Shown one piece after another: positions 4,288-27,681 of a DNA stretch of 35,738 nucleotides. The notes beneath the pieces were generated by a model, which ran no database searches, was not told the DNA's origin, and was given only the letters and a program-made list of their open reading frames with translations. The stretch covers positions 1 to 35,738 of the IMG/VR virus record IMGVR_UViG_3300023059_000016, one strand, 5' to 3'. A program made the translations under genes and the position numbers. How positions within the stretch are numbered: the stretch's first letter is position 1; every line of letters starts with the position of its first letter. The DNA comes from a virus. Its lineage: Duplodnaviria; Caudoviricetes.

Positions 4288-4530
4288 TCATGCCGCCCTC
4301 CGCTTGAAAGGACGGCGATTGTCGTTAGCTGGTCGTACGCGGCGCATACGGATCTTCTCGCCCGTTTTGCGCGACACGTCATAGGCGATGTCTTTGATGG
4401 TTGCTGATGTTGCCGGATCGCTTTCGCGATACCAACGGGCGATTGAGAAAATTGCTGCGGCAGTCGTTCCCTGAGCAATGAACTCGTCGGCATTTAGGAT
4501 GTGCGCCTGGGTGGCAAGTCTAGTCTGCAT
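4288..4530 (-). CDS. 80-aa phage protein ending in an ssrA-like tag (ANDNRRPFKRRAA)
   Basis: ATACGAGGAG leader before ATG 4530 (MQTRLATQ...). Confidence 0.75.
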   Translation of the reverse strand: MQTRLATQAHILNADEFIAQGTTAAAIFSIARWYRESDPATSATIKDIAYDVSRKTGEKIRMRRVRPANDNRRPFKRRAA

Positions 4531-4648
4531 GGTGTGCTCCTCGTATGGTTTTGGTAAGCGTGACGACCCGTGGCGTGAAAACGCGCGGATCGTCGATGGT
4601 TGGGAAATCCTGGGGCGCAACGGCCCCGTCGCTATCTTTCGCGGTGGA

Positions 4649-4873
4649 TCATGTAACACCCAATCCCACAGCACCCACGACAACGCAAAACCCCACAACA
4701 ACGGTCATCTCAACGGCTTCGCGAGCTGCATATCGTACCCAAGGCATAGGTCGGGCATGCTTCTTTGCCCGGTGATTGGGACGACGCATTGGCTCATCGC
4801 TACCAGCACGATGTACATCGGTCTGCAGGTCTGGCTCCATATCTGCGAGCATTTCCAATAGCGCCCGGTTCAT
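4649..4873 (-). CDS. Small protein with C-terminal transmembrane segment
   Basis: ATGA overlap with the upstream gene; hydrophobic tail VVVGFCVVVGAVGLGVT. Confidence 0.65.
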   Translation of the reverse strand: MNRALLEMLADMEPDLQTDVHRAGSDEPMRRPNHRAKKHARPMPWVRYAAREAVEMTVVVGFCVVVGAVGLGVT

Positions 4874-5202
4874 GCTGCCACTCCTACATGAACAGTCGTT
4901 TCCTGCTGAATGTTATCGTTCGCTACGGGCACTAGGCGATAATATCCGTTCGGCTCAACGCCGCGCACGCGCTTCGGAATTGTCCAGCCAAAGGAGGGCA
5001 GGGTCTTGCGGATATAGCAGACCTGAGTGCGGACTGTTTGATGCGCATTTTCTGGGCCGCCGTTCGGATCGAACGCATAGACATTATCAACGAGGTCGTT
5101 GATATGCATTCGGCGCGGATGAACTGACGTCAATGCGTCAACAATATCTCGTTGGCCTTTTGACAGGGGCGCATCTTGGAGGTCGATGGCTGGGTTGGTC
5201 AT
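4870..5202 (-). CDS. Winged-helix (OmpR C-terminal-like) DNA-binding protein ending in an ssrA-like tag
   Basis: LVDNVY...TVRTQVCYIRKTL...GYYRL resembles an OmpR/PhoB effector domain; C-terminus ANDNIQQETTVHVGVAA. Confidence 0.7.
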   Translation of the reverse strand: MTNPAIDLQDAPLSKGQRDIVDALTSVHPRRMHINDLVDNVYAFDPNGGPENAHQTVRTQVCYIRKTLPSFGWTIPKRVRGVEPNGYYRLVPVANDNIQQETTVHVGVAA

Positions 5203-5203
5203 A

Positions 5204-5497
5204 TTACGCAGCCTCCATCACTGAAGCGGAGTCATCGCCCAACGCATCTTCAATAGGCCCGGCAATCGCGCCGCTTGTCTGGAAAACTTCGTATGTTTCG
5301 CCGGGCCAGAGCTTGGCGAGGCGCGTTGCCTCCGCCATTGCTTGCTCAAAGGAGCCATGTTCATACGGTAGGGTCGTGGCAACGCTAACGCGTCCGGTCT
5401 GTTTGCCGCGGCGGAATACAAAGAATCCGCCGCCGATTACTTCGTTCTTTCGAGGTGCTGGCGATCTTCTTCTTCTCGGGGTTTTCGCGTTCGTCAT
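5204..5497 (-). CDS. First gene of the leftward operon, hypothetical
   Basis: ACACGAGGAG leader; basic N-terminus (RRRR); ends MEAA. Confidence 0.75.
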   Translation of the reverse strand: MTNAKTPRRRRSPAPRKNEVIGGGFFVFRRGKQTGRVSVATTLPYEHGSFEQAMAEATRLAKLWPGETYEVFQTSGAIAGPIEDALGDDSASVMEAA

Positions 5498-5567
5498 TGG
5501 GTGTCTCCTCGTGTTTGGTTGGTTCAGCAGATCAAGCTGGTGAGGCTGTCTTCGTGCTGTTGAGGAG

Positions 5568-5620
5568 ACTATATGCGCATACGCATATTGCAGTCAATAA
5601 AAAAATGCGAACGCGCCTAT
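5568..5620 (-). promoter_or_regulatory. PL-like promoter with two 18-bp operators (OL)
   Basis: Minus strand TTGACT(5597-5592)-N18-TATAGT(5573-5568); operators ATATGCG-CATA-CGCATAT (5571-5588) and AAATGCG-AACG-CGCCTAT (5603-5620). Confidence 0.8.
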
Positions 5621-6321
5621 TTGCGTTTTCGCGCCTTTGTAATTGATGCCTGCACGATGCCAGCAATGACGACGTCGGAATCTTCGTCACGATGTTGGTC
5701 AATATACAAGGGAGCCTGAAACTCGGGAGCATGAGAGCGGGGCCAGAGCCATTTACGCCCTTCCTCGTCGATCACGTATTCTTTGAGAGTGTTCTCGAAT
5801 AGCCCATTTTTACCCTGGACCCGAACCAGAACAACATCTCCACTTTCAGGTCGAATGTGATTCTCGAAGAGGCCAGCTACAAACACAATGCTTCCCTCAG
5901 GGTAGTATTTGTCCATAGAATCACCGCGTACACGGAAGGCTTTCATTTTGTATGGTGGAACATCCATAACGTCCGGAAGTGTAACGTAATCAGCTTCGTA
6001 TTCAGGAGTTTCGACACCATCTGTCCAAGCGCCTGCTTGGATGTCTCCAGCCAATGGATACCTCCTGCCCGAATTCATTACTGCAGGAACTACTTCGTCC
6101 AGCCCTGAAAAATAGAGCTGACTTTTTCCTGTCTTTTGAGAAAGCAGGGCTGTGTACTCAGCACCTGGTATTTGCTTCTGTCGTTCCCACTTTGAAATTG
6201 TGGATTGAAATTCCTCTTCCTTACCGAGGAAAACGGCGAACTGCTTCTGGTCCAAGCCTAACTCCGTGCGGAGTTGCTTGATACGCTCTGCAGCTTTCTT
6301 TTTTTGATCATTGTTTTCCAT
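5617..6321 (-). CDS. cI: CI-like phage repressor (XRE HTH plus S24 autopeptidase)
   Basis: RIKQLRTELGLDQKQFA...QSTISKWE HTH; QAG cleavage site, VRGDSM serine, TLKEY lysine; start placed at ATG 6321. Confidence 0.92.
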   Translation of the reverse strand: MENNDQKKKAAERIKQLRTELGLDQKQFAVFLGKEEEFQSTISKWERQKQIPGAEYTALLSQKTGKSQLYFSGLDEVVPAVMNSGRRYPLAGDIQAGAWTDGVETPEYEADYVTLPDVMDVPPYKMKAFRVRGDSMDKYYPEGSIVFVAGLFENHIRPESGDVVLVRVQGKNGLFENTLKEYVIDEEGRKWLWPRSHAPEFQAPLYIDQHRDEDSDVVIAGIVQASITKARKRK

Positions 6322-6323
6322 AT

Positions 6324-6407
6324 AAAGGCGCATACGCCTATTTAATATCGACGTCAAAGGCGCGAACGCATTTCATGCTTGACTTGGTATGCGTATGCGC
6401 CTATATT
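6324..6407. promoter_or_regulatory. OR region: three 18-bp operators, PR promoter and probable PRM
   Basis: AAAGGCG-CATA-CGCCTAT (6324-6341), AAAGGCG-CGAA-CGCATTT (6356-6373), GTATGCG-TATG-CGCCTAT (6387-6404); PR TTGACT(6379-6384)-N17-TATATT(6402-6407); leftward TTGACG at 6357-6352. Confidence 0.85.
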
Positions 6408-6595
6408 CCAATCATCAACCGACGCACCAGACGTTGGAATTACAAAATGGCAGGCAACGAAATGAACATCCTTCCAAGGATCACCGCCATCGAAAGATAG
6501 GCAAGTTCAGCAGGGTAATAAAGGAGAGACGTAATGACGAATTCAGCCATCAGAAGCGACGACGTTTCGACTAAGCCACCATAGAATTAACAGGG

Positions 6596-6629
6596 ACACT
6601 GCTGACCTTAATAGGGTCAGCGGTGCTTT
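6596..6629 (+). terminator. Stem-loop downstream of PR (tR1-like)
   Basis: CACTGCTGACC-loop-GGTCAGCGGTG followed by only a short CTTT. Confidence 0.4.
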
Positions 6630-6834
6630 CGCCGTTTCTGCGTCGAAACATAAAAAGGCGGAGTTTATGAGCCGGCACCACCCGCTGCTCGCTCCGCCTC
6701 GTAATCCCAGCGCTTACACGAGGAGGGCTTGCGCCGCTTCTACACGCTGGTTTCCTTCACGGGTACCACCCCGCGCAGGACACAGATGGCTTCACCAAAG
6801 CCATTTGTCAACCAACACCAAACACGAGGAGAGC

Positions 6835-7116
6835 ATGAAAGATTATGACACCATAGAAGAAATGCATCGAATGCACGAGGTGGGCGCCAACCCGACTGAG
6901 ATCGGAAATGCGCTCAGCCTGCCCAGATCGACGGTAGCTTCAATTCTCCGCCGACCTATTCCAAAACCTACAGCCGACCGCATTGTCGTGCGGTGTGTTT
7001 CTAACGGTGGATGGTCCACGGCCAATCACTGCGTCAGTTATATCGCTATGCCACGCATTCGTGCGCTGGAAGCTGCGAATGACAACTACGAACAGCCGGG
7101 CGCAATCGCAGCCTGA
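6835..7116 (+). CDS. HTH DNA-binding protein ending in an ssrA-like tag (AANDNYEQPGAIAA)
   Basis: ACACGAGGAG leader before ATG; GANPTEIGNALSLPRSTVASILRR helix-turn-helix. Confidence 0.8.
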   Translation: MKDYDTIEEMHRMHEVGANPTEIGNALSLPRSTVASILRRPIPKPTADRIVVRCVSNGGWSTANHCVSYIAMPRIRALEAANDNYEQPGAIAA

Positions 7117-7173
7117 GCCACGTTGGCCTGCATGCGCGGGCCACAGATCAACCTCCTGATAGGAGGCATATCA

Positions 7174-7377
7174 ATGAAATCCCACAACTTGCGTGAGCCA
7201 CACAAGGCGCACCAAACCAAATTCACGCGGACTGGTGAGCGGGACACGATAAACCGCAAACCTTATCGAACACCCGCGCAGAAGCTGCATGCCCGCGACA
7301 CTGCCGTCCTTAAAGCCGGACGTTACGTTTCGAACGCTCCTGTGTCGTTCAGCAGAACGAAGCGGGGTGCAGCGTGA
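7174..7377 (+). CDS. Small basic phage protein
   Basis: AGGAGG SD before MKSHNL...; ends RGAA. Confidence 0.65.
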   Translation: MKSHNLREPHKAHQTKFTRTGERDTINRKPYRTPAQKLHARDTAVLKAGRYVSNAPVSFSRTKRGAA

Positions 7378-7679
7378 CTTGCGAATGCGCTGACTGCTGG
7401 GATCTGCCCGGCTCAATTGTGACCCACAAGCTGACAGGCTGGAAGGGCATCATCATCGGCGATCGGGACGGTTGCATGTTCCTCACGGTGCGCTTCTGGA
7501 TACCAGGCACCGGCCTAGGGACGGTGGAAGTTTCGCGCTTCGAAGTTGAACCACCTTCCAATGATGGCGACGGCGGTGGCGGCTCTGAGGTCGCAACTGA
7601 AGAAGACAATGTCATTCCGGTCGATTTCACCAAGGGCGTGAAGCTGACCAAATCAACAAAGACGAGGGGAGTAGCGTGA
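7374..7679 (+). CDS. Phage hypothetical protein
   Basis: GTGA overlaps at both ends; CxCxxC N-terminus. Confidence 0.7.
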   Translation: MTCECADCWDLPGSIVTHKLTGWKGIIIGDRDGCMFLTVRFWIPGTGLGTVEVSRFEVEPPSNDGDGGGGSEVATEEDNVIPVDFTKGVKLTKSTKTRGVA

Positions 7680-8395
7680 TGGGTAAATTTAAAGTGGGTG
7701 ATCGGGTCCAAGTTGTTGACGACAGGGGCGGCGCAAAGCTTGGAGAGACCGGCGAGATTATCGGCACAGATACCACGTTTTCAACCGCATTCTATTACAT
7801 CAAATGGGATGCGGGCAGCCGCAAGCAGGGGCTTTACGAGAATCGACTTGCTCTCTTGCCTATTGCTGGCGCAACCGGCAAGCCTGCCTTCAAGGTCGGC
7901 GATCGGGTGAGGGTCATAGCCAAGACTGGCGCTAGGATGCCTGACATCGGTGTTGTCGGGGTAATTTGTGATTGCGACGACGGATACACGGTTGCTGTAG
8001 AGGGAGTGGGTGCATTTGGCTACGATGCACACGATTTGGAATTAGTTCCTATGTTATTGGAACACGGCCGCTATTACCGTTCTCGTAACGGTAGAAAAAT
8101 CGGCCCGGTATATGTCGTCAATTCACAGGCGGGCGGATGTATCGCAGATGATGGCGATGAGTGCCATCCTTATCGGCGGGATGGCACCATTATGTATAGC
8201 GACAGCGAACATCTCGACCTCATCTCCGAATGGATCGATGAGCCTGTCAAGGCAGATGCACCGGTTGAAGCATGTGAAATCATTCGTTTGACCGTCACAG
8301 CTGACACAACCGATCTCGATGCACGTCTTGATGGCATCATCCAGAAGCTTGAGCGCATCGACGAGCTTTCCTCAAAGCTTGGCCTCGCCGCCTAA
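7676..8395 (+). CDS. Phage protein with two KOW/SH3-like FKVGDRV repeats
   Basis: FKVGDRVQVV and FKVGDRVRVI repeats; ends LGLAA. Confidence 0.7.
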   Translation: MMGKFKVGDRVQVVDDRGGAKLGETGEIIGTDTTFSTAFYYIKWDAGSRKQGLYENRLALLPIAGATGKPAFKVGDRVRVIAKTGARMPDIGVVGVICDCDDGYTVAVEGVGAFGYDAHDLELVPMLLEHGRYYRSRNGRKIGPVYVVNSQAGGCIADDGDECHPYRRDGTIMYSDSEHLDLISEWIDEPVKADAPVEACEIIRLTVTADTTDLDARLDGIIQKLERIDELSSKLGLAA

Positions 8396-8460
8396 CCCGC
8401 AAATCCCACCGATAAACCAACCAGCCCCGCTGCAATCGCGGCGGGGAATGAGGAGGTATT

Positions 8461-8751
8461 ATGCAAAATAGACCGAATGCATTCCAGCGCGTCCTGAGCC
8501 GCGAATATGGTGAAGACCGACTGCTAGGAATGCCAGCACGTGATCAGATGCACTACGATCGTCGTATGAATGAGATGGCGCAGATGACTGGCGGCCGTGG
8601 GTTTCGCACCCCTTCGAAGGAGGTTCGACGCTTTACTGACGGCACCACCCGTGGCGAGCGTAAGCGTAAGCGCCGGGAAACAGCCAACGCTGTTATTCGT
8701 GCAGCGCATGAAGCGGCATGGGCTCGCACAGCTTATGAGGTCGGCCTATGA
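8461..8751 (+). CDS. Basic phage hypothetical protein
   Basis: GAGGAGG SD; 96 aa. Confidence 0.7.
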   Translation: MQNRPNAFQRVLSREYGEDRLLGMPARDQMHYDRRMNEMAQMTGGRGFRTPSKEVRRFTDGTTRGERKRKRRETANAVIRAAHEAAWARTAYEVGL

Positions 8752-8915
8752 CAGCGCCGTCAAGCAACCGGCCCTTCAAAGACTACGTCGTCGAAGACGA
8801 CCGCATCTTGTCTAGCGAAACGACGCTCGGTCTCGGCGATCGCTTCGTCCAAGGGTTGTTAGTTGTCGCGGCTTTAGCGCTGGCCATCGGCGTTTACTCA
8901 TCGGTGCTGTTGTGA
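8748..8915 (+). CDS. 55-aa membrane protein (not in ORF track)
   Basis: ATGA overlap; MTAPSSNRPFKDYVVEDDRILSSETTLGLGDRFVQGLLVVAALALAIGVYSSVLL. Confidence 0.6.
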   Translation: MTAPSSNRPFKDYVVEDDRILSSETTLGLGDRFVQGLLVVAALALAIGVYSSVLL

Positions 8916-9073
8916 ACGTGGTCACGCCAGCCGGTAATGGCACCGGAAAGATTGCGCGTTCGCTGGCCTTAACGGGCTTTACGCTCGGGCTCTTGCTGGT
9001 CTTAGCAGGGCTCATTTTCTGGAATGCAGTGCTGCCGTTCTACGGCCTGCTTTATTTGTGGGGTGTGTCATGA
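8912..9073 (+). CDS. 53-aa membrane protein (not in ORF track)
   Basis: GTGA overlap; MNVVTPAGNGTGKIARSLALTGFTLGLLLVLAGLIFWNAVLPFYGLLYLWGVS. Confidence 0.55.
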   Translation: MNVVTPAGNGTGKIARSLALTGFTLGLLLVLAGLIFWNAVLPFYGLLYLWGVS

Positions 9074-9174
9074 CCTACCCACGGTTCCCCACGCTGACAA
9101 CTTCTGCGCCAGTCTGGCTAATCGGCTCGCTCATCCTGCTAGCCATGATGATCGTCATTCAACTTACCCACTAA
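9070..9174 (+). CDS. 34-aa membrane peptide (not in ORF track)
   Basis: ATGA overlap; MTYPRFPTLTTSAPVWLIGSLILLAMMIVIQLTH. Confidence 0.5.
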   Translation: MTYPRFPTLTTSAPVWLIGSLILLAMMIVIQLTH

Positions 9175-9204
9175 CCACCGACCAAAACACACGAGGAGCT
9201 ACTT

Positions 9205-9960: not shown

Positions 9961-9962
9961 AC

Positions 9963-10598
9963 TTGCTGCTCGAGCTGAAAAGCCTGCCTAAATCCAAGGC
10001 GGAAGCGATGGCGTTAGGTGTAAGGCACTTCTTCACTGGAAGCCCGTGCTCTCGTGGACACGTTGCGAAAAGGTACGCTAGCACAGGGCAATGCACCGAA
10101 TGCCAGTACCTCCATAGGCTCAACTGGAAAAGCAATAACCCAGAAAAAGAAGCCGAGAGCAGACTTCAAAGCGTACGAGCATGGACGCTCCGAAATCCAG
10201 ATCGGAAACGAGATTTGGCGCGTAAGTCAAATGCAAAGCCAGATGTCTCGGCGAACAACGTAGCAAGGGCGAGGCGGTGGAGAGACAAAAACCCTGAGCA
10301 GGCCAGAAACTCTCGGCTGGTATCTAATCGAAATAGACGCTCAAGAAAGAGGGGTGCTGAAGGTACTCATGTCGCAGAAGACATAGCAAACATACTGAAG
10401 CGCCAAAAATACAGATGCGCTGAATGTGGAGTTTCGGTCCGAAAGATTGAGCAGCGGCATGTTGATCACATCGCACCTTTGGCTTTGGGTGGATCTAACT
10501 GGCCATCGAATCTGCAAATACTCTGTCCAGCTTGCAATCTGCATAAAGCGGCGAAAGATCCGCTAGTTTTCGCTCGGCAAAAAGGGCGACTTATTTAA
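9963..10598 (+). CDS. HNH endonuclease (homing-type)
   Basis: CAEC...HVDHIAPLALGGSNWPSNLQILCPACNLHK; N-terminal Cys/His module. Confidence 0.9.
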   Translation: MLLELKSLPKSKAEAMALGVRHFFTGSPCSRGHVAKRYASTGQCTECQYLHRLNWKSNNPEKEAESRLQSVRAWTLRNPDRKRDLARKSNAKPDVSANNVARARRWRDKNPEQARNSRLVSNRNRRSRKRGAEGTHVAEDIANILKRQKYRCAECGVSVRKIEQRHVDHIAPLALGGSNWPSNLQILCPACNLHKAAKDPLVFARQKGRLI

Positions 10599-10626
10599 CC
10601 ACACCACCAACACGAGGAACTAACAC

Positions 10627-11187
10627 ATGGCAAGACTTGGAACGGCGTTTGACGCCACCCAACACGACACGACGCAGTCGGACTATTCCGAACTGCCGAA
10701 CGGCACATACAAGATGGAAATCGAGGCGGCCGACGTGGTGCCGACTTCGACCGGTAGCGGCACAATCCTGAAAACAACGCTGAAGGTGCTCGAGCCTGCT
10801 GAATACGCTGATCGCAAGCTGTTCAACAACTACAACATCGAGAACAAGAACCCGCAGGCGCAAGAGATTGGCCAAAGGCAATTTGCCAGCCTTTGCCGCG
10901 CGCTGGAAATGTCTTCGGTAGAAGACACGGACGATCTGCTCTTCAAGTCGTTCACCGTGCGTGTGGCCCTCGGTAAGCCTTCAAAGGACGGCCAGTATCC
11001 GGCGCGCGCCGAGATCAAGAAATACTTCTTCCCCGACGAAAACAACGTGCCTGAGCCGAGCATTGACGCTCTGCAGCCTGCGGCGGCAGCGCAGCGTCCT
11101 GCAAATGACAACCGTCCTGCAGCCGCGAATAACAATAAGCCTGCGCAGCCTGCAAAAGCTGCGGGCAGCCGTCCTTGGTCTAAGTAA
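10627..11187 (+). CDS. DUF669-like phage single-stranded DNA-binding protein
   Basis: LPNGTY...OB-fold-like core, Ala/Pro tail ending RPWSK; typical position after the AAA_24 gene. Confidence 0.75.
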   Translation: MARLGTAFDATQHDTTQSDYSELPNGTYKMEIEAADVVPTSTGSGTILKTTLKVLEPAEYADRKLFNNYNIENKNPQAQEIGQRQFASLCRALEMSSVEDTDDLLFKSFTVRVALGKPSKDGQYPARAEIKKYFFPDENNVPEPSIDALQPAAAAQRPANDNRPAAANNNKPAQPAKAAGSRPWSK

Positions 11188-11252
11188 ATACCTGACAAGC
11201 TGCCGGTGCTAGCGCGCCGGTAGCTTACCGAACCGAACACGAGGAGAAACCC

Positions 11253-12311
11253 ATGCGGGTAACGCTTGACCGAGCGCAGCTTGCGCACGCCTTGTCGACA
11301 GTGACAAAGGCTGTTGAAGCCAGAACGACAATCCCAATTCTTGGTAACGTGCTTTTGTCCACGGACAAAGGACAGCTGAGCATCACCGGTACAAATCTTG
11401 ATCTGGAAATCAGCACCAGCTTGCCTGTTCTAGACAGTCAGGACGGCACAGTCACGGTTGCGGGTAAGCTGCTTCTGGATATTGCCAAGCGGGCCACAAG
11501 TGACGTTAACTTGGAAGCCGACGGCAATCATCTGATTGTCAAATTTGGCAAAAGCCGTTTCAAGCTGGACACACTGCCAGCGGCTGACTTCCCGTCCTTC
11601 AGTCACGGAAGCTTCGACACCACGATCGAGTTCGATCTCGCTTCGCTCGTGCAGGAAGTGCAGTTTGCTGTCAGCACCGAAGAAACCCGCTATTATCTCT
11701 GCGGCGTTTTTCTGGAAGCGAAGGACGGCCATATCGTTGCCACGGCGACAGATGGTCATCGCCTTGCGTCGACACGCATCGAGCAGGAAGCAACGTTTGC
11801 ATCAGTTATTCTGCCCAACAAACTGCTCTCATTGCTGCCGGCCGGAGTTGTGTCAGTTTCGTTGTCGTCGAACAAGGTAATGGTCGAAAGCGGTTCGACA
11901 GTCATCGTGTCGAAGCTCGTCGACGGCACATATCCCGATTACGAGCGTGTCATTCCCAAGCCCTCGGAGCGTGTCGCTACGCTGTCGGCAAAAGCACTGC
12001 GCGAAGCTGTCGGTCGCACGTCGGTTATCGCCAGTGAACGCGGTAAGGCAGTTCGGTTCTCATTTGCTTCGGATGCTCTGACTCTGAATGTCGCTAATCC
12101 AGATCGCGGCGATGCGACCGAGGAAATAGAAGTCAACTTCAGCAGCGAGCCACTGACGATCGGTTTCAACGGTCAGTATGTCACCGACCTCATGGCGGCG
12201 TTTGGTGCGGATGAAATCACAATGTCTATGGCAGATCCCGGTTCACCAGCATTGGTCACGTCAGCCAGCAGGCCGGGATACCGCACAGTATTGATGCCGA
12301 TGCGCGTGTAG
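11253..12311 (+). CDS. dnaN: DNA polymerase III beta sliding clamp (phage copy)
   Basis: TIPILGNVLL, ETRYYLCGV, ATDGHRL, GTYPDYERVIP, IGFN, VLMPMRV motifs. Confidence 0.95.
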   Translation: MRVTLDRAQLAHALSTVTKAVEARTTIPILGNVLLSTDKGQLSITGTNLDLEISTSLPVLDSQDGTVTVAGKLLLDIAKRATSDVNLEADGNHLIVKFGKSRFKLDTLPAADFPSFSHGSFDTTIEFDLASLVQEVQFAVSTEETRYYLCGVFLEAKDGHIVATATDGHRLASTRIEQEATFASVILPNKLLSLLPAGVVSVSLSSNKVMVESGSTVIVSKLVDGTYPDYERVIPKPSERVATLSAKALREAVGRTSVIASERGKAVRFSFASDALTLNVANPDRGDATEEIEVNFSSEPLTIGFNGQYVTDLMAAFGADEITMSMADPGSPALVTSASRPGYRTVLMPMRV

Positions 12312-12316
12312 GTGAG

Positions 12317-12499
12317 GTGACCATGAAAAGCACCTTCGCGATATTCAAGCAGGTCTCACCCGAAACAGACCGGCCATTTCGGATCATCGAAAGTTACCTA
12401 ACATCGGAGGGGATGCGCTCGCGCATTTGCTCCGGCGCATTCTCTTCGCTGGAAGTTGCGCAGTATCAGGTTTCACAGTTGGAAGCGGGAAATTACTAA
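12317..12499 (+). CDS. Small phage hypothetical protein
   Basis: GAGGT SD; TAATG coupling to the next gene. Confidence 0.6.
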   Translation: MTMKSTFAIFKQVSPETDRPFRIIESYLTSEGMRSRICSGAFSSLEVAQYQVSQLEAGNY

Positions 12500-13443
12500 T
12501 GGCGCCAATCCCAAAACCAACCGCTTCGACCGTCAGCGCCATATATCAGGCTTATGAGGCGAACAATGAGCAGCGCGACGGGAAGACAATTCCCGCCTCG
12601 CAAATAGCCTAAGAGTGTAGCCGTAAGTTGTTCTATGACTTTCGCTGTGCGACACCACACGAGCATATAAACGGTCGAACGCTGCGTATTTTTGAGACTG
12701 GTAACGTTGAGGAAACACGATGGATTGAAAATCTGCGCATGATCGGCTGCGAGGTCGTGGATTACGGACCTGACGGCAGGCAGATACGCATTGATCTTTG
12801 CGGCGGACACGTTGGCGGCTATCTGGACTCGGAAATACTTGGCCTTCCAGAAGCGCCGAAGACTTGGCATGTTGGCGAAATAAAGTCGCACAATCTCAAG
12901 TCGTTCACGTCATTGAAAAAGGATGGCGTGCAGAAAAGCAAACCTTTGCACTTTGGGCAAATGCAGACTTACATGCACGCGCGTGGACGAGATCGGGCAA
13001 TATATCTTGCCGTTTGTAAGGACAATGACGAGCTTTACGCTGAACGACTGCACTATGATGCGGAATATTGCCTGCGGCTGTTAGCTAAGGCTGAGCGCGT
13101 TATCAACGCGGATGAATTACCGGCGCGAGTAACCGACAATCCAGAGTTTTTCTCATGTAAGTGGTGCAAGCATCACAGCATTTGCCACGAAAATGCATGG
13201 CCTCGCACAAACTGCCGGACATGCATTTTCTCTTCGCCAGAACCGGGCGGAACATGGTCGTGTGCGCGATTTAGCAAACCATTGTCATTGAAAGAACAGG
13301 CTGACGGCTGCCCCGCGCATCTATTTTCGCCTGCATTAGTGCCGGGAACCCAGGTGGATTCCGACGAGGACGCGGAGACGATCACTTATGAATTGCGCAA
13401 CGGAAAGTTGTGGGTGGATGGCGAGGGAAGGAAGGCGTCGTGA
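12499..13443 (+). pseudogene. Cas4-like PD-(D/E)xK Fe-S exonuclease interrupted by TAA at 12610-12612
   Basis: One continuous frame MAPIPKP...SQIA*ECSRKLFYDF...GYLD...EIKS...QMQTY...CKWCKHHSIC. Confidence 0.8.
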
Positions 13444-14111
13444 GTATTCTTGATCTTTTTCCAGATAACGATAACTGCGAAGGCTATTTCTGGTCTGGGA
13501 TCGAAATAGAACGCCTTCCCCAGAGCTCAAATGCCGCGAAAGCAATCGGATGTAGGTTCTATTTCTCAGGTGTGGAATGCATCAACGGCCACTTGGCTCC
13601 AAGATACACTGCTGGAAGTCGATGTGTGGTTTGCGCGCATGAAATGTCGACCAGTCGGCGTTTTGGGGAACGTGTAGGCTCGAACGGTGCAGCTAGGGCC
13701 CATCTGGTAAGGGCTATCGCCGGATTATCTGGCCAAAAGACATACGTTCCTTCTCGCCCATGTAAGAATGGGCATCAATTGCGTTGGGTAGGAACAAATA
13801 ACTGCATCGAGTGCGAACAAGAAAAGAAGCTGGACTACCGAGAATCCAGACGAGAACAACGGCTACTTAAAAAGTACGGTATCTCGACAGATGAATATGA
13901 ACGAATGGCTGAATCTCAAGAATGGAAATGTAAGATCTGCGATGAGGCACAGGAAGACAGGTCGAAATTTCATGTAGACCATTGTCACGACACCCAAATT
14001 CTACGCGGTTTACTCTGTTCAAGATGCAATCAAGCCATTGGCTTGATGAGAGATGATCCCTTAATCATGCGAAAGGCTGCCCAATATGTCGAACATGCTA
14101 AAGCTGCGTGA
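13440..14111 (+). CDS. Endonuclease VII-domain protein (homing-type)
   Basis: KYGIS...CKIC...VDHCHDT..RGLLCSRCNQAIG; GTGA-coupled start at 13440. Confidence 0.88.
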   Translation: MSILDLFPDNDNCEGYFWSGIEIERLPQSSNAAKAIGCRFYFSGVECINGHLAPRYTAGSRCVVCAHEMSTSRRFGERVGSNGAARAHLVRAIAGLSGQKTYVPSRPCKNGHQLRWVGTNNCIECEQEKKLDYRESRREQRLLKKYGISTDEYERMAESQEWKCKICDEAQEDRSKFHVDHCHDTQILRGLLCSRCNQAIGLMRDDPLIMRKAAQYVEHAKAA

Positions 14112-15849
14112 TTATCAATCATCCGCGATCGATGCTGTTTTTGATTATTGGCGCGAGTTTGACGGAAACCCACTTGTTGATCTTGCGACTGGCTGTGGCA
14201 AATCGTTGGTGATGGCAAAGCTCATTCAGCGACTGATCGAAGGCTGGTCAGATATGCGTGTCATGATCGTTACTCATGTCGCTGAATTAATAGAACAGTC
14301 ATATCTTGAGCTGCTTGGCGTCTGGCCATTCGCGCCTGCAGGTATCTATTCAGCTGGCCTTGGCCGTCGTGATGCGCGCAGTCAGATCGTGTTTGCCGGC
14401 ATTCAGACCGTTCACAACAAGGCGGAGCAAATCGGACACGTTGACGTGCTTATGGTTGACGAGTGCCACCTGATCCCAATCAACAGCAACACGATGTATC
14501 GCAAGTTCATTGATGCGCTGCTCGAAATCAACCCTGACATGAAAATCCTTGGTCTGACTGCCACACCTTATCGACTGGATAGCGGTCGCTTGGATGAGGG
14601 TGCAGATCGGCTGTTTGACCAGATCGTCTACACCTACGGCGTTGCTGACGGCATCCGTGACGGCTTCCTTGCTCCGCTAACAAGTAAGCCAACGGCTACA
14701 GAATATGACGTCAAAGGAATCGGCAGGCTTGGCGGCGATTACAAGCAGCGCGCGCTGGAAGAGGCGATTAACCGGACCGACCTTAATGATGCTGTGGTTT
14801 CTGAGATTATCGCAAAGGGCGCTGATCGTCGCTCCTGGCTTTGTTTCTGTGCCGGCGTAAAGGCTGCGCTGGACGTGCGAGACGTATTCAGATCCCGCGG
14901 CATTACGTGCGAGGCCGTCACGGGCGATACTCCAAGAGAAGAACGTCGCCGCATCCTTGAAGATTTCAAGGCATACCGTATCCAGTGCGTGACGAACAAT
15001 TCAGTTCTTACGACAGGATTCAATCATAAGGGCGTTGATTTAATTGCATTTATGCGCCCGACCCTGTCTTTGAGTTTGTACGTCCAAATGGCGGGGCGCG
15101 GCACTCGTCCGCTCTATAAGGCAGGTGCGCCGCTGGATACCGTTGAGGAGCGTCTCGCCGCGATCAGTGCAGGACCAAAGAAGAATTGTCTCGTTCTGGA
15201 TTTTGCGAAACTCGTTGACCGGCACGGCCCGGTTGACATGGTCGAGCCAAAAGCTCCAAGCGCTGGCAATGGCGAGCCGCCAATCAAGATATGCCCGACA
15301 GTGCCTGGCGACAATGGGGCGGTCGGTTGCGGTGAGAAGGTGCATATCTCGCTGATGAAATGCCCATGCTGCGGATATGACTTTCCGCCGAATGAGGACG
15401 AGAAGCTAACCCGGCAGGCCGCTGACGTTCCGATTGTCAGCACCGCCGAAGCAGAATGGCGCAAGGTGACAGGTCGGACGTTTCACTTTCACGAAGGTAA
15501 GGGCGACAAGCCGCCTTCGGTCAAGTGTAGCTACATCGCTGGCTATACGCAGATAAATGAATGGCTATGCCCGCAGCATACGGGTTTCGCGCAAACCAAG
15601 GCGCATCGATGGTGGACGCAGCACGGAGGCCAGCGGCCGTTTCCAAAGACGGTCATGGAATGGCTCGAACGCCAGCGTGAGTTGCTCACAACCGACGAAA
15701 TCAGCGTTGTGCCGAATGGCAAATACTGGAACGTGAAAGACGTACGCGCCGGCCTCATGCTCGGAGCCGATAACGACAACGTGCCGGAGCCTGCAAATGA
15801 CAATGTTCCCGATTGGATGGCAGAGATCGATGACGAGATACCATTTTGA
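14086..15849 (+). CDS. SF2 DEAD/DEAH-box DNA helicase with zinc finger and SSB-like acidic tail
   Basis: LRDYQ, ATGCGKS, VDECH, GLTATP, QMAGRG; C-terminus DDEIPF. Confidence 0.92.
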   Translation: MSNMLKLRDYQSSAIDAVFDYWREFDGNPLVDLATGCGKSLVMAKLIQRLIEGWSDMRVMIVTHVAELIEQSYLELLGVWPFAPAGIYSAGLGRRDARSQIVFAGIQTVHNKAEQIGHVDVLMVDECHLIPINSNTMYRKFIDALLEINPDMKILGLTATPYRLDSGRLDEGADRLFDQIVYTYGVADGIRDGFLAPLTSKPTATEYDVKGIGRLGGDYKQRALEEAINRTDLNDAVVSEIIAKGADRRSWLCFCAGVKAALDVRDVFRSRGITCEAVTGDTPREERRRILEDFKAYRIQCVTNNSVLTTGFNHKGVDLIAFMRPTLSLSLYVQMAGRGTRPLYKAGAPLDTVEERLAAISAGPKKNCLVLDFAKLVDRHGPVDMVEPKAPSAGNGEPPIKICPTVPGDNGAVGCGEKVHISLMKCPCCGYDFPPNEDEKLTRQAADVPIVSTAEAEWRKVTGRTFHFHEGKGDKPPSVKCSYIAGYTQINEWLCPQHTGFAQTKAHRWWTQHGGQRPFPKTVMEWLERQRELLTTDEISVVPNGKYWNVKDVRAGLMLGADNDNVPEPANDNVPDWMAEIDDEIPF

Positions 15850-15859
15850 AGAAAGCTCC

Positions 15860-19372: not shown

Positions 19373-19391
19373 CCAACGCGAGGAGAATTTC

Positions 19392-20429
19392 ATGAGCCAT
19401 AGACTTACGGATCAGTCAATCGAAACAAAGACCGCATCAGTTAATGCCGTCAACCAAGTTGTCACTGACAATTACGCCATCTACGAAGGTGATGCGTGTG
19501 AGCTAATTCGTGGCGTTCCTACAGGAACCGTCCATTTCGGCATCCATAGCCCTCCTTTCGAGGGGCTTTATCGGTTCAGCAATTCTGATCGCGATATCAG
19601 CAACAACGACGGCAATGGCTTTTGGGCGCATTACACATTCCTCATTCAGGAACTTTTGCGCGTAACTATGCCGGGACGCATCCACGCCGTGCATTGCATG
19701 CAATTGCCAACTAGTAAGATCAGACATGGCCATATAGGAATGCGCGATTTCCGAGGGGAGATCGTTCGGGCTTACGAGGATGCCGGGTGGATTTTCCATA
19801 GCGAGGTCTGCATCTGGAAAGACCCAGTCGTTGCACAGCAGCGCACAAAATCTATCCGACTGCTTCATAAGCAGATCACGAAAGACAGTACGATTAGTGG
19901 GCAAGGGCTTGCTGATTACATGCTGATGTTCCGCAAGCCGGGAGACAATCCTGATCCAGTAGATGGCATGTTTGATCGCTATGTCGGTTATGGCAACGAA
20001 CCTACGGCATTAGATGATCGGCTGGCGTCTGGCGAAGATCGGGATCGAGCAGAGAAATGGTTCTCAATCGAAGTCTGGCAGCGTTACGCATCGCCGGTCT
20101 GGATGGACATAAACCAGACACGTACTCTGCAATATCGATCAGCCCGAGACGAGAAAGACGAACAGCATATCTCCCCGCTCCAGTTGGACGTGATAGAACG
20201 TTGTATCGAACTGTGGAGCAATCCTGGTGATGTGGTTCTGACGCCATTCCTTGGCATTGGCAGCGAGGTTTACGGCGCAGTAGCGGCTGGGCGCAAGGGC
20301 GTTGGTTTCGAGTTGAAGTCGTCATATTTCAGCCAAGCCACACGCAACATTGCGGCTTTGGATAATAAGCAAGTCAGCATCTTCGACGTGGCAAATGACA
20401 ACCGTGAGGTCATAGAAGATGCAGCCTGA
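19392..20429 (+). CDS. Beta-class N4-C/N6-A DNA methyltransferase ending in an ssrA-like tag
   Basis: Motif IV SPPF precedes motif I PFLGIGS; C-terminus ANDNREVIEDAA. Confidence 0.9.
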   Translation: MSHRLTDQSIETKTASVNAVNQVVTDNYAIYEGDACELIRGVPTGTVHFGIHSPPFEGLYRFSNSDRDISNNDGNGFWAHYTFLIQELLRVTMPGRIHAVHCMQLPTSKIRHGHIGMRDFRGEIVRAYEDAGWIFHSEVCIWKDPVVAQQRTKSIRLLHKQITKDSTISGQGLADYMLMFRKPGDNPDPVDGMFDRYVGYGNEPTALDDRLASGEDRDRAEKWFSIEVWQRYASPVWMDINQTRTLQYRSARDEKDEQHISPLQLDVIERCIELWSNPGDVVLTPFLGIGSEVYGAVAAGRKGVGFELKSSYFSQATRNIAALDNKQVSIFDVANDNREVIEDAA

Positions 20430-20736: not shown

Positions 20737-20772
20737 GAAGGGCGCCGTTTTGATGAAGCACGCCAACGACAA

Positions 20773-20961
20773 TCACTGCAAAGTAGCTGCTTTACGCTCT
20801 GCCTGAAGATGATTCAGCAAGTCGGCAAGATCGTCGGCTTGCGACCACTCAAGGCCAACCTGCTTTACGCCGTTCACTTCTGCTGACTGGCCGGTCTTAA
20901 CGTCAATTACAGCCCACACGCCGTCGAACATTTCCAGAATGTCGTATCGCGCTTTTGCCAT
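20773..20961 (-). CDS. 62-aa hypothetical protein, paralog of 1811-2065
   Basis: AAGGAGG SD before MAKARY...; antisense to the replication operon. Confidence 0.7.
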   Translation of the reverse strand: MAKARYDILEMFDGVWAVIDVKTGQSAEVNGVKQVGLEWSQADDLADLLNHLQAERKAATLQ

Positions 20962-20984
20962 CGCTTCCTCCTTTAGGAGTTCAC

Positions 20985-23162: not shown

Positions 23163-23233
23163 AGACGCATAAAATTGGGTAGCAAAAACAAACCCGGAAG
23201 CTACAGTCGTAACAAAATTAAAAGGAGACTGTT

Positions 23234-24550
23234 ATGGCGGATGGTAACTTTTCTAGTACTAAGCGCAGTATTGTGGTCGATGGTTTCACCAATAGCGTTT
23301 TAGACCCCAAAGAGCCGATGCTCGGACCCTTGCAAAGCGGCGGCACAATCATAGCTAATACTGCTCCAGGCTGTTGGGGTCCAATGATTACTCCTCGATT
23401 GCGTGGTGGTCATGAGGTCACTAAGCCTGTTTTCATTGAGGGCGCTGAGGTCGGAGATGGCGTGGTTATCCGTATTCGCGACATCTCCGTCACGTCGTTG
23501 GCGACGGCTTCAGGTCACGACACAGTTTCCAACCAGTTTTGTTTGGGCGATCCCTTTGTAGCAGCACGATGTCCAACCTGTGACGAAGTCTGGCCTGAAA
23601 CACACATTGAAGGAGTGGGGCAAGACTCTGTCCGCTGTAATAAGTGTGGAGAGGCGATAAAGCCGTTCACCATGGAGCACGGTTACACAGTTGTTTTCGA
23701 TGATACGCAGTCAGTCGGTGTAACGCTGCCGCAAGATGCAGCGCGAAAGATCGCCGAAAATGCTGATCACTATGCATCTCTGCCGGATAACTCGGTGCAG
23801 CACTCAATCTTGAATTATGCTCCATCGGACCTTGTTGGCGCCATCGTTCGAATGCGCCCATTCTTGGGTCAGTTAGGCACGACCCCGTCTATCGCAATGC
23901 CGGATTCGCATAATGCAGGTGATTTCGGTTCCTTCCTTGTCGGAGCACCTCACCGTTACGCGCTCACACCAGAGCAGCTTCTGGAGAATAAGACCGATGG
24001 CCATATGGATATTGACGCAGTTCGCGCGGGTGCCGTGCTGGTTTGCCCCGTAAAAGTTAAGGGCGCAGGCGTGTATATGGGCGACATGCATGCGTCGCAG
24101 GGCGATGGAGAAATCGCAGGTCACACCATGGACGTTGCAGGAAGTGTGACCCTTCAGGTTGAAGTCTTGAAAAGTTACAACAATGATGGACCTGTATTAT
24201 TCCCCTTGCTGGAAGACCTACCTCCTCTGGCCCGTCCATTCACCCAAGAAGAAAAGCAGAAAGCGTTGAAGTTGGCGCAAAAGTGGGGAGTGGAAAGAAC
24301 CGAAGAAGTAGCGCCTATATCTGTCATTGGGACGGCACAAAACATGAATGCAGCTATCGTCAACGGCCTCGAGCGAGCATCCAAGCTTCTCGGCATGACT
24401 GTTGCAGAAGTCCGTAATCGGGCCACGATAAACGGAGCCATTGAGATTGGGCGCGACCCAGGTGTAATTCAGGTTACTTTTCTGGCGCCACTGAAAAATC
24501 TGGACGCAGCTGGTCTTGGAGAAATTGCTCGCAAGCAATACGGCCTCTGA
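23234..24550 (+). CDS. Acetamidase/formamidase family protein (cargo)
   Basis: GHEVTKPVFIEGAEVGD, DGHMD, GDMHASQGDGEI; own AAGGAG SD and terminator. Confidence 0.88.
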   Translation: MADGNFSSTKRSIVVDGFTNSVLDPKEPMLGPLQSGGTIIANTAPGCWGPMITPRLRGGHEVTKPVFIEGAEVGDGVVIRIRDISVTSLATASGHDTVSNQFCLGDPFVAARCPTCDEVWPETHIEGVGQDSVRCNKCGEAIKPFTMEHGYTVVFDDTQSVGVTLPQDAARKIAENADHYASLPDNSVQHSILNYAPSDLVGAIVRMRPFLGQLGTTPSIAMPDSHNAGDFGSFLVGAPHRYALTPEQLLENKTDGHMDIDAVRAGAVLVCPVKVKGAGVYMGDMHASQGDGEIAGHTMDVAGSVTLQVEVLKSYNNDGPVLFPLLEDLPPLARPFTQEEKQKALKLAQKWGVERTEEVAPISVIGTAQNMNAAIVNGLERASKLLGMTVAEVRNRATINGAIEIGRDPGVIQVTFLAPLKNLDAAGLGEIARKQYGL

Positions 24551-24569
24551 TAATCCCACCCTAATTAGA

Positions 24570-24591
24570 AAGGCGGCCTTTCAGCCGCCTT
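24570..24591. terminator. Stem-loop after the amidase gene
   Basis: AAGGCGGC-CTTTCA-GCCGCCTT. Confidence 0.6.
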
Positions 24592-24746
24592 CATGTTAGG
24601 GCTTAGTTAAGCATCAGAATGTCGATCGCAGTCTTTTGGTCGTATTGAATTAGGTGTGACGAAATTACTACAGACTTTTTTCATTTAGGACCTATCTTTA
24701 ATCCAAGAACGAGATTTCAATGAACTCACGAGCTTGGAGAGATGTT

Positions 24747-25448
24747 ATGAACTTTAAATCAATTTTGCTTGCATCAACTGTCGCAATTGTCGGAACTACT
24801 GGCGCGCATGCTGCAGACGCGATTGTTTATGAAGAACCAGTTGCGGTTGTTGCTCCAGCTCCAGTATTTTCTTGGACAGGTGGCTATCTTGGTGGCCAGG
24901 TTGGTTACGGCTGGGGTAAGTCACGTTTCAGCGATGACTTCACAGCGAACCTTAAGCCGGATGGCTTCCTTGGCGGACTTTACGCTGGTTACAATTTCGA
25001 CATGGGCAATAACTTCGTCTTGGGCGTCGATGGTGATGTGACTTATAACAATCTGAAGGATAGCTACTCGGTTCTGGCTCCCGATGGTCTCACAGATAGC
25101 ATCGAAAGCAAGCTGCGCTGGTCGGGTGCTGTGCGTGCTCGTGCAGGTTTGGCAATGGATCGTTTCATGCCTTACATTGCTGGTGGTGTTGCATTCGGTA
25201 GCGTGAAAAATACGCTTTCAGTTTCTGACGGTATCAATGAGGTGAGCGCCTCACAGAGCAAAACCCACACGGGTTGGACAGCTGGTGCGGGTGTTGATTA
25301 CGCTGCAACTGACAATGTGATTGTCCGTCTTGAATATCGCTACACCGATTACGGTCACAAGGACTATGACTTTGACTTGGGTGCGGGTTCTGTCCGCGAG
25401 AAGTTTAAGACAAATGAAGTGCGTCTCGGCGTAGCTTACAAGTTCTAA
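24747..25448 (+). CDS. Omp25/Omp31 (RopB) family outer-membrane beta-barrel protein (cargo)
   Basis: Signal peptide AHA|AD, FSWTGGYLGGQVGYGWG, VRARAG, GWTAGAGVDYA, RLEYRYTD, C-terminal YKF. Confidence 0.92.
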   Translation: MNFKSILLASTVAIVGTTGAHAADAIVYEEPVAVVAPAPVFSWTGGYLGGQVGYGWGKSRFSDDFTANLKPDGFLGGLYAGYNFDMGNNFVLGVDGDVTYNNLKDSYSVLAPDGLTDSIESKLRWSGAVRARAGLAMDRFMPYIAGGVAFGSVKNTLSVSDGINEVSASQSKTHTGWTAGAGVDYAATDNVIVRLEYRYTDYGHKDYDFDLGAGSVREKFKTNEVRLGVAYKF

Positions 25449-25470
25449 AGTTTACCTCCCGTCAAACTCG

Positions 25471-25500
25471 ACCGCTCGGAGCAATCTGGGCGGTTTTTTT
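25471..25500 (+). terminator. Rho-independent terminator after the omp gene
   Basis: ACCGCTCGGA-GCAA-TCTGGGCGGT followed by a T run. Confidence 0.85.
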
Positions 25501-25558
25501 ATTGCCAAGAAAAACTAACACAACCGACCGTCACAATCAAAATACAACCACAGGCAAC

Positions 25559-25700
25559 GCGTAAGTCATACTGCGTAAGTCTCAAAAACCAACAAAAGAC
25601 TTGCGCAAAAGCACGCTGCTTTTAGTGCGTAAGAGTTCTTATATAGAAACTTACGCACAAAGCGCGCAGCGCGTAGTTCTATGCGTTTGAGAACTACGCA
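25559..25700. repeat. Cluster of direct and inverted GCGTAAG repeats; probable phage replication origin
   Basis: GCGTAAG at 25559, 25573 and 25627; inverted copies at 25599-25607 and 25649-25657; AT core TTCTTATATAGAA; GCGTAGTTCT/AGAACTACGC pair. Confidence 0.65.
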
Positions 25701-25868
25701 CTTTTTAGAAAATTTCCCGATTGAAAAATACAACCTGATTTTAGGTTGGTTGAAATAGTTGGACGCGCGGTGTCGGTCATTAACACCACATTTATAGTGC
25801 CGCCCCACACTCATCCTGCCGCTACCAACGGCATGGACTCACCACCGCAACAAACACGAGGAGCACAC

Positions 25869-26397
25869 ATGGCTCGCAACAGCTCACGCGCCTGCATCGA
25901 AAACCGTAACCACAACGCAAACCGTCCGCATCAATGGTGTGCGTACCAAGATCACGACACACAACGGCAAGGTGACGTTAAAAGCAGCCCTGCCTTTGGA
26001 ATGGGAACTGCAAGCTGCACAAGTTCGCAGCCTGCGTAAACTGCCAGAATACGTTCACACAGCGCGAGACGTTCGACCGGGAACATTCACACTGGCCGGA
26101 GATCAGAACGCAGCCAAACGTGGACCCAAAGCAAGAGCAGAGGCATTAGCGGCAGGACTGACGCCGGGAGAAGCAGACGTCCGAATCTATCTCTATGGTG
26201 GTGTGCTGCGGCAGATTGAAAACAAGGTCGGTAAGGCCAAGCTCGAACCAAGCCAGATAACTCGTCATCCGCTACTTGATGCACTTGGCTTTCCAGTCGT
26301 GGTTGTCAGGGCCGTTACCGAGGATGATGCAGCGGAGCAGGCAGTAAGGCTGGTCAAAGACTGGCTGAGTGAAAGTGCGACAAACCAAGCCGCATAA
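25869..26397 (+). pseudogene. VRR-NUC-like nuclease with an apparent 5' frameshift
   Basis: EWELQ...GLTPGEAD...IENK...Q motif; the ATG behind the ACACGAGGAG leader (25869) is out of frame with the main ORF (25939-26397). Confidence 0.65.
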
Positions 26398-26425
26398 ATA
26401 CCGAACCAAACACGAGGTGAATTTT

Positions 26426-26791
26426 ATGAGCAACACGGTAACAAGCAAAATCATCCCTGAAGGCTTCTATTGGTCAAAGGTGTGCGGGATGGCTTTAAGG
26501 AAGAGACAGTTTGTATCGCCAATCACTGTAGAACGGCACACGATGACACCTAAATCGATACTGAGGCGGGTGCTCGCAGAAATATCTCCGGTCGAAAACG
26601 ATGCGATTGAAGCCAAAAAACTAACTTCGGAAGACGCTTCACGTTACGGTTCCGCCGTGTGGTCTGGTAGGTTGAAAGAATATTTCTCTTGGAGAGAAGC
26701 GCAAGGCTTGTCGTGGTGGCATGAACAAGAACGCCTTTATTCTTCCGTTGCCAATGATAATTCGGCGATTGCAGTCAGGAAAGCAGCATGA
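26426..26791 (+). CDS. Phage hypothetical protein ending in an ssrA-like tag (ANDNSAIAVRKAA)
   Basis: ACACGAGGTG leader before ATG 26426. Confidence 0.75.
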   Translation: MSNTVTSKIIPEGFYWSKVCGMALRKRQFVSPITVERHTMTPKSILRRVLAEISPVENDAIEAKKLTSEDASRYGSAVWSGRLKEYFSWREAQGLSWWHEQERLYSSVANDNSAIAVRKAA

Positions 26792-27681
26792 GCAGGCACA
26801 AATCCCTTGCCGGAGCCATGACTGCTTTAATGGCTTACAAAAACCGGCCTGAAAGCGAAATCATACCCGTCTCAACAAACTGGAATGTAGTGCCTGAGAA
26901 CAACAATGAACCTGAAGTACTAGCGCAGATGCATACTGAGCGACGCATCCAAATACTTCCGACCGTTGAAGAGATCATGCGGAATGTCGCCAGTGAGGAC
27001 ATCGAGCGCAATGATTTAGGTCAGATAGTTCGTATTGGTCGGCTCAAATTCAGCGATGGCACGCAAGTTGAAGCTGGAAACAAATATGGACCCGGTGGCG
27101 AGGTAATCGCCACCAAACATCGAATGCCAGCGGGTGCAATGCTTGGATGCCGAGAACAAGAGAGCAGGACGCTAGGTGGAGATGAAAATCCATCCGAAGT
27201 GGCTGCGAGCAATAACTATTTCCTAGCTGCGTTCGAATTAAAGCGTCGAGAGCGTATTCGGTCGGGGAAAAAGGCCAAGCGAACATACCAAACGCATGAC
27301 CAAGCGAAAGAGGATCTCGCTAAGGCGTACGCAAATACGCCAATGCTGCCGCCCATAACGAGATGTCCGCCGGGGCTGCCGAATGCAGGAAGCCGTATTG
27401 GAGACAGTTTTCTTGGGATGAAGAAAACGACAACCGGTGAATCGGGATCAATGGGATGGCAGGACGTTTCGACCGCGCTGGTCGATCGGGAAATATGGGC
27501 GCAGGCGATTGACGCGCTTTCGGAGAGGGATAGAGCGATCATGGATAAATCCCTCACGGCAAAGAACCTGTCCTCGCTGGCACCTGGTGGGCATAAGAGG
27601 TCGGCTGAAAGGCGAGGGAAAAGGTACTTGTTGGCAGCTAACGATAATTTTTCTGCGATTATCCAAAAAATAGCAGCATAA
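26788..27681 (+). CDS. Phage protein in the late-regulator position, ending in an ssrA-like tag (AANDNFSAIIQKIAA)
   Basis: ATGA coupling; last early/middle gene; AIDALSERDRAI resembles a sigma region 4 segment (weak). Confidence 0.7.
   Translation: MSRHKSLAGAMTALMAYKNRPESEIIPVSTNWNVVPENNNEPEVLAQMHTERRIQILPTVEEIMRNVASEDIERNDLGQIVRIGRLKFSDGTQVEAGNKYGPGGEVIATKHRMPAGAMLGCREQESRTLGGDENPSEVAASNNYFLAAFELKRRERIRSGKKAKRTYQTHDQAKEDLAKAYANTPMLPPITRCPPGLPNAGSRIGDSFLGMKKTTTGESGSMGWQDVSTALVDREIWAQAIDALSERDRAIMDKSLTAKNLSSLAPGGHKRSAERRGKRYLLAANDNFSAIIQKIAA

Follow-up and report, generated by a model that had tools for sequence, protein, structure and literature searches.

ANDN-bearing genes of the window

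The stretch analyzed here, hereafter the window, is the whole of record IMGVR_UViG_3300023059_000016 (positions 1-35,738), a linear viral fragment of 35.7 kb with a CheckV completeness of 55% that represents roughly half of a prophage of Ochrobactrum type, belonging to the Rhizobium phage 16-3 group. Six of its proteins end in ANDN, a spacer of 6-11 residues and a terminal AA, with the coordinates and codons given in a preliminary description of the sequence, and the tails mimic at the protein level the tag specified by the host transfer-messenger RNA (tmRNA) gene, ssrA. The gene order is tRNA-Asn, integrase, CI-like repressor, a replication block (Sak4, SSB-like DUF669 protein, beta clamp, Cas4-type exonuclease, helicase, methyltransferase and primase), then terminase, portal, protease and capsid. 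The location of the integrase beside tRNA-Asn marks the element as a temperate phage (Table 1).

A six-frame scan of the window recovered exactly nine ANDN sites, each 12-28 residues before a stop and on the coding strand of its region. Six correspond to the ANDN...AA tails already described; the other three, in the SSB-like protein, the helicase and a 17-codon open reading frame (ORF), lack the AA end and had been missed. The reported absence of ANDN from the integrase, repressor, amidase, outer-membrane and head proteins holds, and the first four of these, like the stress protein, have neither ANDN nor an AA end.

Table 1. Features of the window, with their tails or ANDN sites
Feature	Position	Strand	Tail or ANDN site	Remarks
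tRNA-Asn	46-120			adjoins integrase
Tyrosine integrase	265..1581	+	no ANDN, no AA end	adjoins tRNA-Asn
80-aa unknown protein	4288..4530	-	ANDNRRPFKRRAA (4288-4329)	leftward operon
110-aa likely winged-helix protein	4870..5202	-	ANDNIQQETTVHVGVAA (4870-4923)
CI-like repressor	5617..6357	-	no ANDN, no AA end	phrog_4, E 1e-25
93-aa likely helix-turn-helix protein	6835..7116	+	AANDNYEQPGAIAA (7075-7116)	early in rightward operon
Phage beta sliding clamp and two HNH/endonuclease VII genes	11253-12311, 9963-10598, 13410-14111			replication block
SSB-like DUF669 protein	10627..11187	+	ANDN at 11101, then ANNN	28 residues from end; ends RPWSK, no AA
Superfamily 2 (SF2) helicase	14086..15849	+	DNDN and ANDN (15793)	before acidic DDEIPF end (15793-15849)
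N6/N4 DNA methyltransferase	19392..20429	+	ANDNREVIEDAA (20391-20429)	PF01555, E 1e-15
17-codon ORF	20753..20806	+	MKHANDNHCKVAALRSA	AGGAAG site upstream
Acetamidase/formamidase, outer-membrane beta-barrel, universal stress protein, tRNA-Met, glycine-zipper lipoprotein	23234-25448 and 27956-29035			prophage cargo
121-aa unknown protein	26426..26791	+	ANDNSAIAVRKAA (26750-26791)
297-aa likely late regulator	26788..27681	+	AANDNFSAIIQKIAA (27637-27681)	sigma-region-4-like end

ANDN and AA are kept in 3/3 distinct relative tails of the 80-residue protein, for which a family search gave no match, and a relative of the 110-residue protein, itself with a weak Trans_reg_C match (E 0.003, below cut-off), carries the tail ANDNVEPQRSAA. 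The tail of the 93-residue protein is the copy nearest to the host tag. NDN is found in 43 of 52 distinct relative tails of the SSB-like protein and in 52 of 64 of the helicase, whose DDEIPF end, which resembles the acidic tail of bacterial SSB, persists even in relatives that lost ANDN. Methyltransferase tails of relatives carry NDN in 8/10 cases and AA in 9/10. The 17-codon ORF is likely the remnant of a lost methylase gene; frames of 350-490 codons in relatives end in ANDNHC...SA tails that resemble it.

Among 120 homologues of the likely late regulator, ANDN lies within the last 30 residues in 110 and within the first 60 in 75, a second copy occurring near residue 37-40 in relatives, and the four ANDN positions are 95-99% conserved as against 30-60% for most neighbours. 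No PDB sequence match was found for this family, nor a fold match at E 0.001 or better, the best being a weak one to the SigL region-4 domain (E 0.087). In a structure model of the window protein (mean predicted local distance difference test score, pLDDT, 75.5), the upstream ANDN of relatives falls beside a low-confidence stretch. The tails of the other proteins are located in variable Pro/Ala-rich extensions.

The window helicase shares 90-95% identity with prophage helicases of Ochrobactrum, or of former Ochrobactrum species placed today in Brucella, as compared with 42-71% for the helicases of cultured rhizobial phages in the 16-3 group. No cultured phage matched the window in a megablast search. 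Weak, divergent promoter-like sites flank the CI-like repressor at 5597 (-) and 6379 (+), with 2 found and 1.8 expected by chance. ARAGORN detected only tRNA-Asn and tRNA-Met, and no tmRNA gene, in this partial record.

Enrichment, spread and conservation of the motif

In the curated list of 56 window genes, eight carry ANDN and six of these end in AA. Among 20,000 within-protein shuffles at most three proteins had ANDN, and ANDN in the last 30 residues combined with a terminal AA appeared in at most one protein, in 3 of the shuffles. ANDN is the most over-represented tetrapeptide both of the window (7 seen in automatic gene calls, 0.09 expected) and of four pooled cultured relatives (58 against 0.49), its permutations are not enriched (0-2 occurrences each), and xNDN variants are enriched as well, with 3-5 copies each. 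AA ends form a wider signal than ANDN tails, closing 15/56 window genes as compared with 3/122 long host ORF ends from non-prophage loci, and the two features are paired (AA in 6/8 genes with ANDN, 9/48 of the others; Fisher p 0.003).

The full ANDN...AA-stop pattern is rare in host chromosomes, being matched in 90 of 101 genomes, nearly always once and at a tag-like sequence, taken to be that of the tmRNA. Apart from genome G001, only 8 additional in-frame ANDN...AA sites occur, in 6 of the 101. In G001 (5.1 Mb) the 12-base motif has 58 occurrences, a density of about 11 per Mb that compares with about 250 per Mb for the window. Among the first 30 occurrences, 9 belong to a related prophage and 3 to the ends of IS6 transposases, and ANDN...AA-stop is found at none of the remaining 18. 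The motif is strongly enriched over host and shuffled baselines alike, in support of the preliminary description.

Some mobile elements of host genomes carry similar ends. IS6-family transposases of Ochrobactrum-type hosts end in ANDNRSPFEVFAELA[A/E] and variants, with five copies recorded (L498:1462-2190 (-), L500, L503; G001 C16:79407, C18:50885). Also, a frame of 572 amino acids in three identical copies (L632:1247-2965, G394), with a weak UPF0236 match, ends in ANDNQTVAQDALAA, and a fragment without a Pfam match, which we take to be transposase-like (L634:2746-3063, G069), ends in ANDNRENRETARAA; the last two are likely insertion sequences.

The pattern extends across the phage group. ANDN sites number 18 in 16-3, 18 in RHph_TM3_3_14B, 23 in AP-16-3, 20 in NV1.1.1 and 20 in RHph_X2_25, and 12 of 14 near-complete IMG/VR relatives carry 8-19. 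The window and the five cultured phages together hold 108 sites, of which 20 are at the C-terminus of a protein ending in AA, 32 at a C-terminus with a different end, 19 close to a start codon and 37 internal. The description of ANDN...AA as a C-terminal tail therefore applies to a part of the sites, the motif as a whole being portable. Its assignment to early and middle proteins holds in part only: head proteins of the window are untagged, but among relatives the portals of several end in ANDN...AA, and tape-measure-like and capsid-like frames carry ANDN near the N-terminus.

An IMG/VR-wide search, with the pattern restricted to GCC and to the stops TAA/TGA, gave estimates of 1,200 stretches matching ANDN...AA-stop, in frame in 101 of the 124 that were read, 480 matching ANDE (64/120 in frame) and 270 matching the control ANND (22/120). 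Judged by eye, some 45 of 87 distinct ANDN tails close long frames, and most others resemble tmRNA genes. A generalization to ANDE tails in beta- and gammaproteobacterial phages was considered and rejected, such tails being sporadic: long frames are closed by about 13 of 38 distinct in-frame tails, 13 of 17 long-frame records have 1-3 AND[N/K/D/E] matches, which is the background level, and one has 7. In-frame ANDE...AA-stop matches in 301 Pseudomonadota genomes are almost all tmRNA-like, and six non-alphaproteobacterial helicase/terminase relatives show 0-3 matches. Individual cases exist among other phages, in which Cro-like proteins and a portal end in ANDE...AA (L511:13782-14042, L514:14587-14838, L260:1-351); record G312 also has a tag-like ANDDNYALAA frame, and a different provirus, G311 (L505, 42 kb, GC 67%), has seven AND[N/D/E] sites in its non-structural half.

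Several observations bear on the level at which the motif is maintained. All four ANDN codons vary across the 108 sites. In orthologues of the 93-residue protein ANDN is kept in 10/10 variants, in 5 codon spellings and with 8 different spacers that gain or lose up to six residues, every one ending in AA. Tails come and go as modules, NDN being found in 5/52 distinct Sak4 tails and 8/59 exonuclease tails. Among AA-ending sites, 14/20 lie 11-13 residues from the end, as compared with 12-13 in host tags. The residue at -1 is Ala at 57/108 sites (p 1e-25) and Pro at 30/108. The first Ala of a real ssrA tag comes from the charged tmRNA, and the triplet before the tag frame encodes Val in 5/5 tmRNA genes; Ala at -1 therefore indicates that the phages copy the finished peptide, not the gene. 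In the DNA on either side of the four codons, identity to the host ssrA gene hardly goes beyond chance, with 2-7 of 15 positions upstream and, downstream, 6-11 of 30 at 8/9 sites and 16 of 30 at one. These comparisons show that selection acts on the protein, and the mimicry is of the kind that had been proposed: codons vary, host tags read ANDN...AA and the preceding Ala is copied.

Host tag, SspB and loss of the motif

Host tmRNA tags begin with ANDN and finish with AA in 5/5 hosts of relatives, the sequence being ANDNKAQGYALAA in both Ochrobactrum-type genomes, ANDNNAKEYALAA in two others and ANDNYAEARLAA in one. SspB, the adaptor for such tags, is present in 101/101 Hyphomicrobiales genomes and ClpX in 5/5 hosts of relatives; SspB (PF04386) was found neither in the window, which is partial (0/1), nor in five related phages (0/5). 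The sspB and tmRNA genes are neighbours, no more than about 0.2-3 kb apart, in the five hosts examined as well as in many other genomes of the Hyphomicrobiales. One host ClpX (G217, L636:907-2184 (-)) itself ends in ANDNPKRKKDEAA, possibly a self-limiting tag.

Phage RHph_X2_26 shares its replication block and host species with RHph_X2_25, yet has 0 sites and AA ends in 4/118 genes. Together with G336 (complete, with terminal repeats; 1 ANDN site) it forms, in a quick helicase tree, a single long-branched clade (support 99) nested among motif-bearing phages, pointing to one loss event. Orthologues in this clade lack both ANDN and AA tails, and no integrase match was obtained in either genome, both being complete. 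A search for further RHph_X2_26-like genomes returned only two short contigs. Provirus G335, so classed, has 16 sites and no integrase match. A link of the motif to lysogeny is at this stage a lead, not a result.

A putative route to proteolysis by ClpXP

SspB recognizes ssrA tags by their upstream part and passes them on to ClpX, by which the end is read (PMC8138137, PMC9382460). An ssrA-tagged protein is degraded more slowly in Caulobacter when sspB is lost (PMC9393093), and structures of alphaproteobacterial SspB are available (2QAS, 2QAZ, 2NYS). The phage tails share with the alphaproteobacterial tag (Caulobacter AANDNFAEEFAVAA, PMC9393093) the AANDN head, the AA end and the length; they differ from it in being gene-encoded, in having free middle residues and in that the head also occurs alone at N-termini and in linkers. 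Since they are an in-frame part of phage genes and are not added at a stalled ribosome, they are not true tmRNA tags; they would function like an ssrA tag yet are not one. The pattern is real, strongly selected and group-wide, and its function is inferred from sequence.

With a probability of roughly 0.6, ANDN would be a docking site for SspB that speeds the turnover of lytic proteins by ClpXP. Phage proteins would dock on host SspB through the genome-encoded tag head (A/P-ANDN), often combined with an AA end, and would be handed to ClpXP, those ending in AA presumably becoming high-priority substrates. On many lytic proteins the handle may upgrade weak AA degrons, and sites at the N-terminus, in linkers or before other ends may hold the protein on SspB, which would allow ClpX to act on a weaker signal. 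Full induction would then flood an adaptor that is scarce (tabulated in a review at a few hundred dimers per cell, PMC9382460), saturate the queue and give a threshold beyond which lytic proteins accumulate together. The motif occurs in lytic-operon genes and is absent from the repressor and integrase. Docking is favoured by the match to the host tag, the presence of SspB and ClpX in the likely hosts, the pairing with AA ends and their tag-like spacing, the copied Ala at -1, the constancy of ANDN amid changing codons and spacers, the loss of the motif in the integrase-less clade and the effect of sspB loss in Caulobacter. The likeliest purpose, with a probability somewhat below even, would be to remove lytic proteins made by leakage or in abortive attempts, allowing lysogeny to be established and maintained.

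Other observations weigh against docking for degradation. The full ANDN...AA form accounts for only 20/108 sites, and the virion proteins of relatives that bear the motif fit poorly with rapid destruction. The C-terminal ANDN of the likely late regulator lies within a confidently predicted helix (270-296, pLDDT 84-93) and not in a loose tail; in this protein it may have a structural role. The lifestyle link depends on a single loss, on long branches of the tree. The complete provirus G333 possesses an integrase but has 0 sites, for which reason a strict rule that temperate means tagged was rejected; its proteins cluster with Roseibium-group sequences and it represents a separate loss. RHph_Y3_1, a temperate phage of another group, has only 2 sites. 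The reading also presupposes that alphaproteobacterial SspB recognizes the NDN residues of the tag. Finally, in an E. coli screen a terminal AA was necessary but often insufficient (PMC10862746).

The motif could alternatively serve as a decoy: phage proteins present in quantity, the SSB-like protein with its two or three copies of NDN in particular, would soak up the scarce SspB and slow host tag-dependent proteolysis during lytic growth. SSB and helicase, in which the motif is repeated but no AA end follows, would suit such a sink. One dedicated protein would be enough, yet the motif sits on 8-20 small regulators and enzymes and is paired with AA ends, and the integrase-less clade lacks it, making a decoy quite improbable. 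A non-destructive tether, by which SspB would bring ClpX to remodel phage complexes (replisome, portal, head) or would shield proteins from other proteases, also has a low probability: the 56/108 sites that are N-terminal or internal, the motif on the portal and other virion proteins, and the reported action of ClpX without ClpP in S. aureus prophage induction (PMC10584840) are what it would explain, while a spacing to the AA end equal to that of the host tag and AA ends enriched about tenfold correspond to the geometry of degradation.

It is similarly improbable that the head is read by something else, be it a different protease or adaptor of the host or some phage protein, given that SspB is the known reader of the tag head and is present in 101/101 genomes of the host order; in E. 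coli ClpA, too, recognizes the head of the tag (PMC9382460, PMC10862746), and the enriched xNDN variants and the coverage of only about half of the genome by the window leave some room for such a reader. An origin at the DNA level or by chance, through captured tmRNA fragments, a DNA repeat or compositional bias, is largely refuted and hardly credible. About half of the ANDN...AA-stop matches in viral contigs do have short upstream frames and resemble tmRNA genes; against this stand the lack of a tmRNA in the window, the near-chance identity to host ssrA beside the codons, the location of all sites on coding strands, the synonymous codon variants and the unenriched permutations.

Degradation of native proteins through comparable signals has precedents. 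Native ssrA-like C-terminal ClpX degrons and RseA(1-108), a native protein delivered by SspB, are likewise genome-encoded (PMC8138137), but they concern single proteins, and the RseA sequence listed there is without ANDN, whereas here the signal extends over a whole phage proteome. Lambda O and MuA (PMC8138137) and the CI fragment of S. aureus phages (PMC10584840) are likewise temperate phages' own proteins that go to host ClpX; these belong to other degron classes, without an adaptor motif and with one protein per phage. In the present case the repressor is untagged and lytic proteins are tagged. Pseudomonas phage pf16 also engages the SspB pathway (PMC5587285), but it brings the adaptor, while the 16-3-like group brings the ligand, without SspB. 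Full-text searches of an open library gave no description of ANDN tag mimics in phages, and term searches in the AP-16-3 genome paper (PMC10460002) and of a sinorhizobial virome paper (PMC5537653) gave no mention of ANDN, ssrA or ClpX. Known precedents comprise single phage ClpX substrates and a phage-borne SspB, from which the proteome-wide reuse of the tag head differs.

A broader model, speculative and on balance unlikely, is that 16-3-like temperate phages run a proteome-wide proteolytic threshold on 10-20 lytic proteins, which would share one saturable adaptor through the copied tag head, would be erased when expressed by leakage and would all flip to stability at full induction. The same trick on single proteins in insertion sequences and some non-alphaproteobacterial phages would make ssrA mimicry a general self-restraint device of mobile elements. 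Lysis-lysogeny switches are currently explained by repressors and a few unstable regulators; if docking on SspB is true, these would be joined by a further level of control, taken over from ribosome rescue and exerted through one adaptor motif that many lytic proteins encode. The tails would also be natural substrates independent of tmRNA, of a type that seems to be missing for alphaproteobacterial SspB from host chromosomes, and would form a collection of evolved degrons differing in strength. These possibilities are directly testable in the classic cultured phage 16-3 and Sinorhizobium meliloti.

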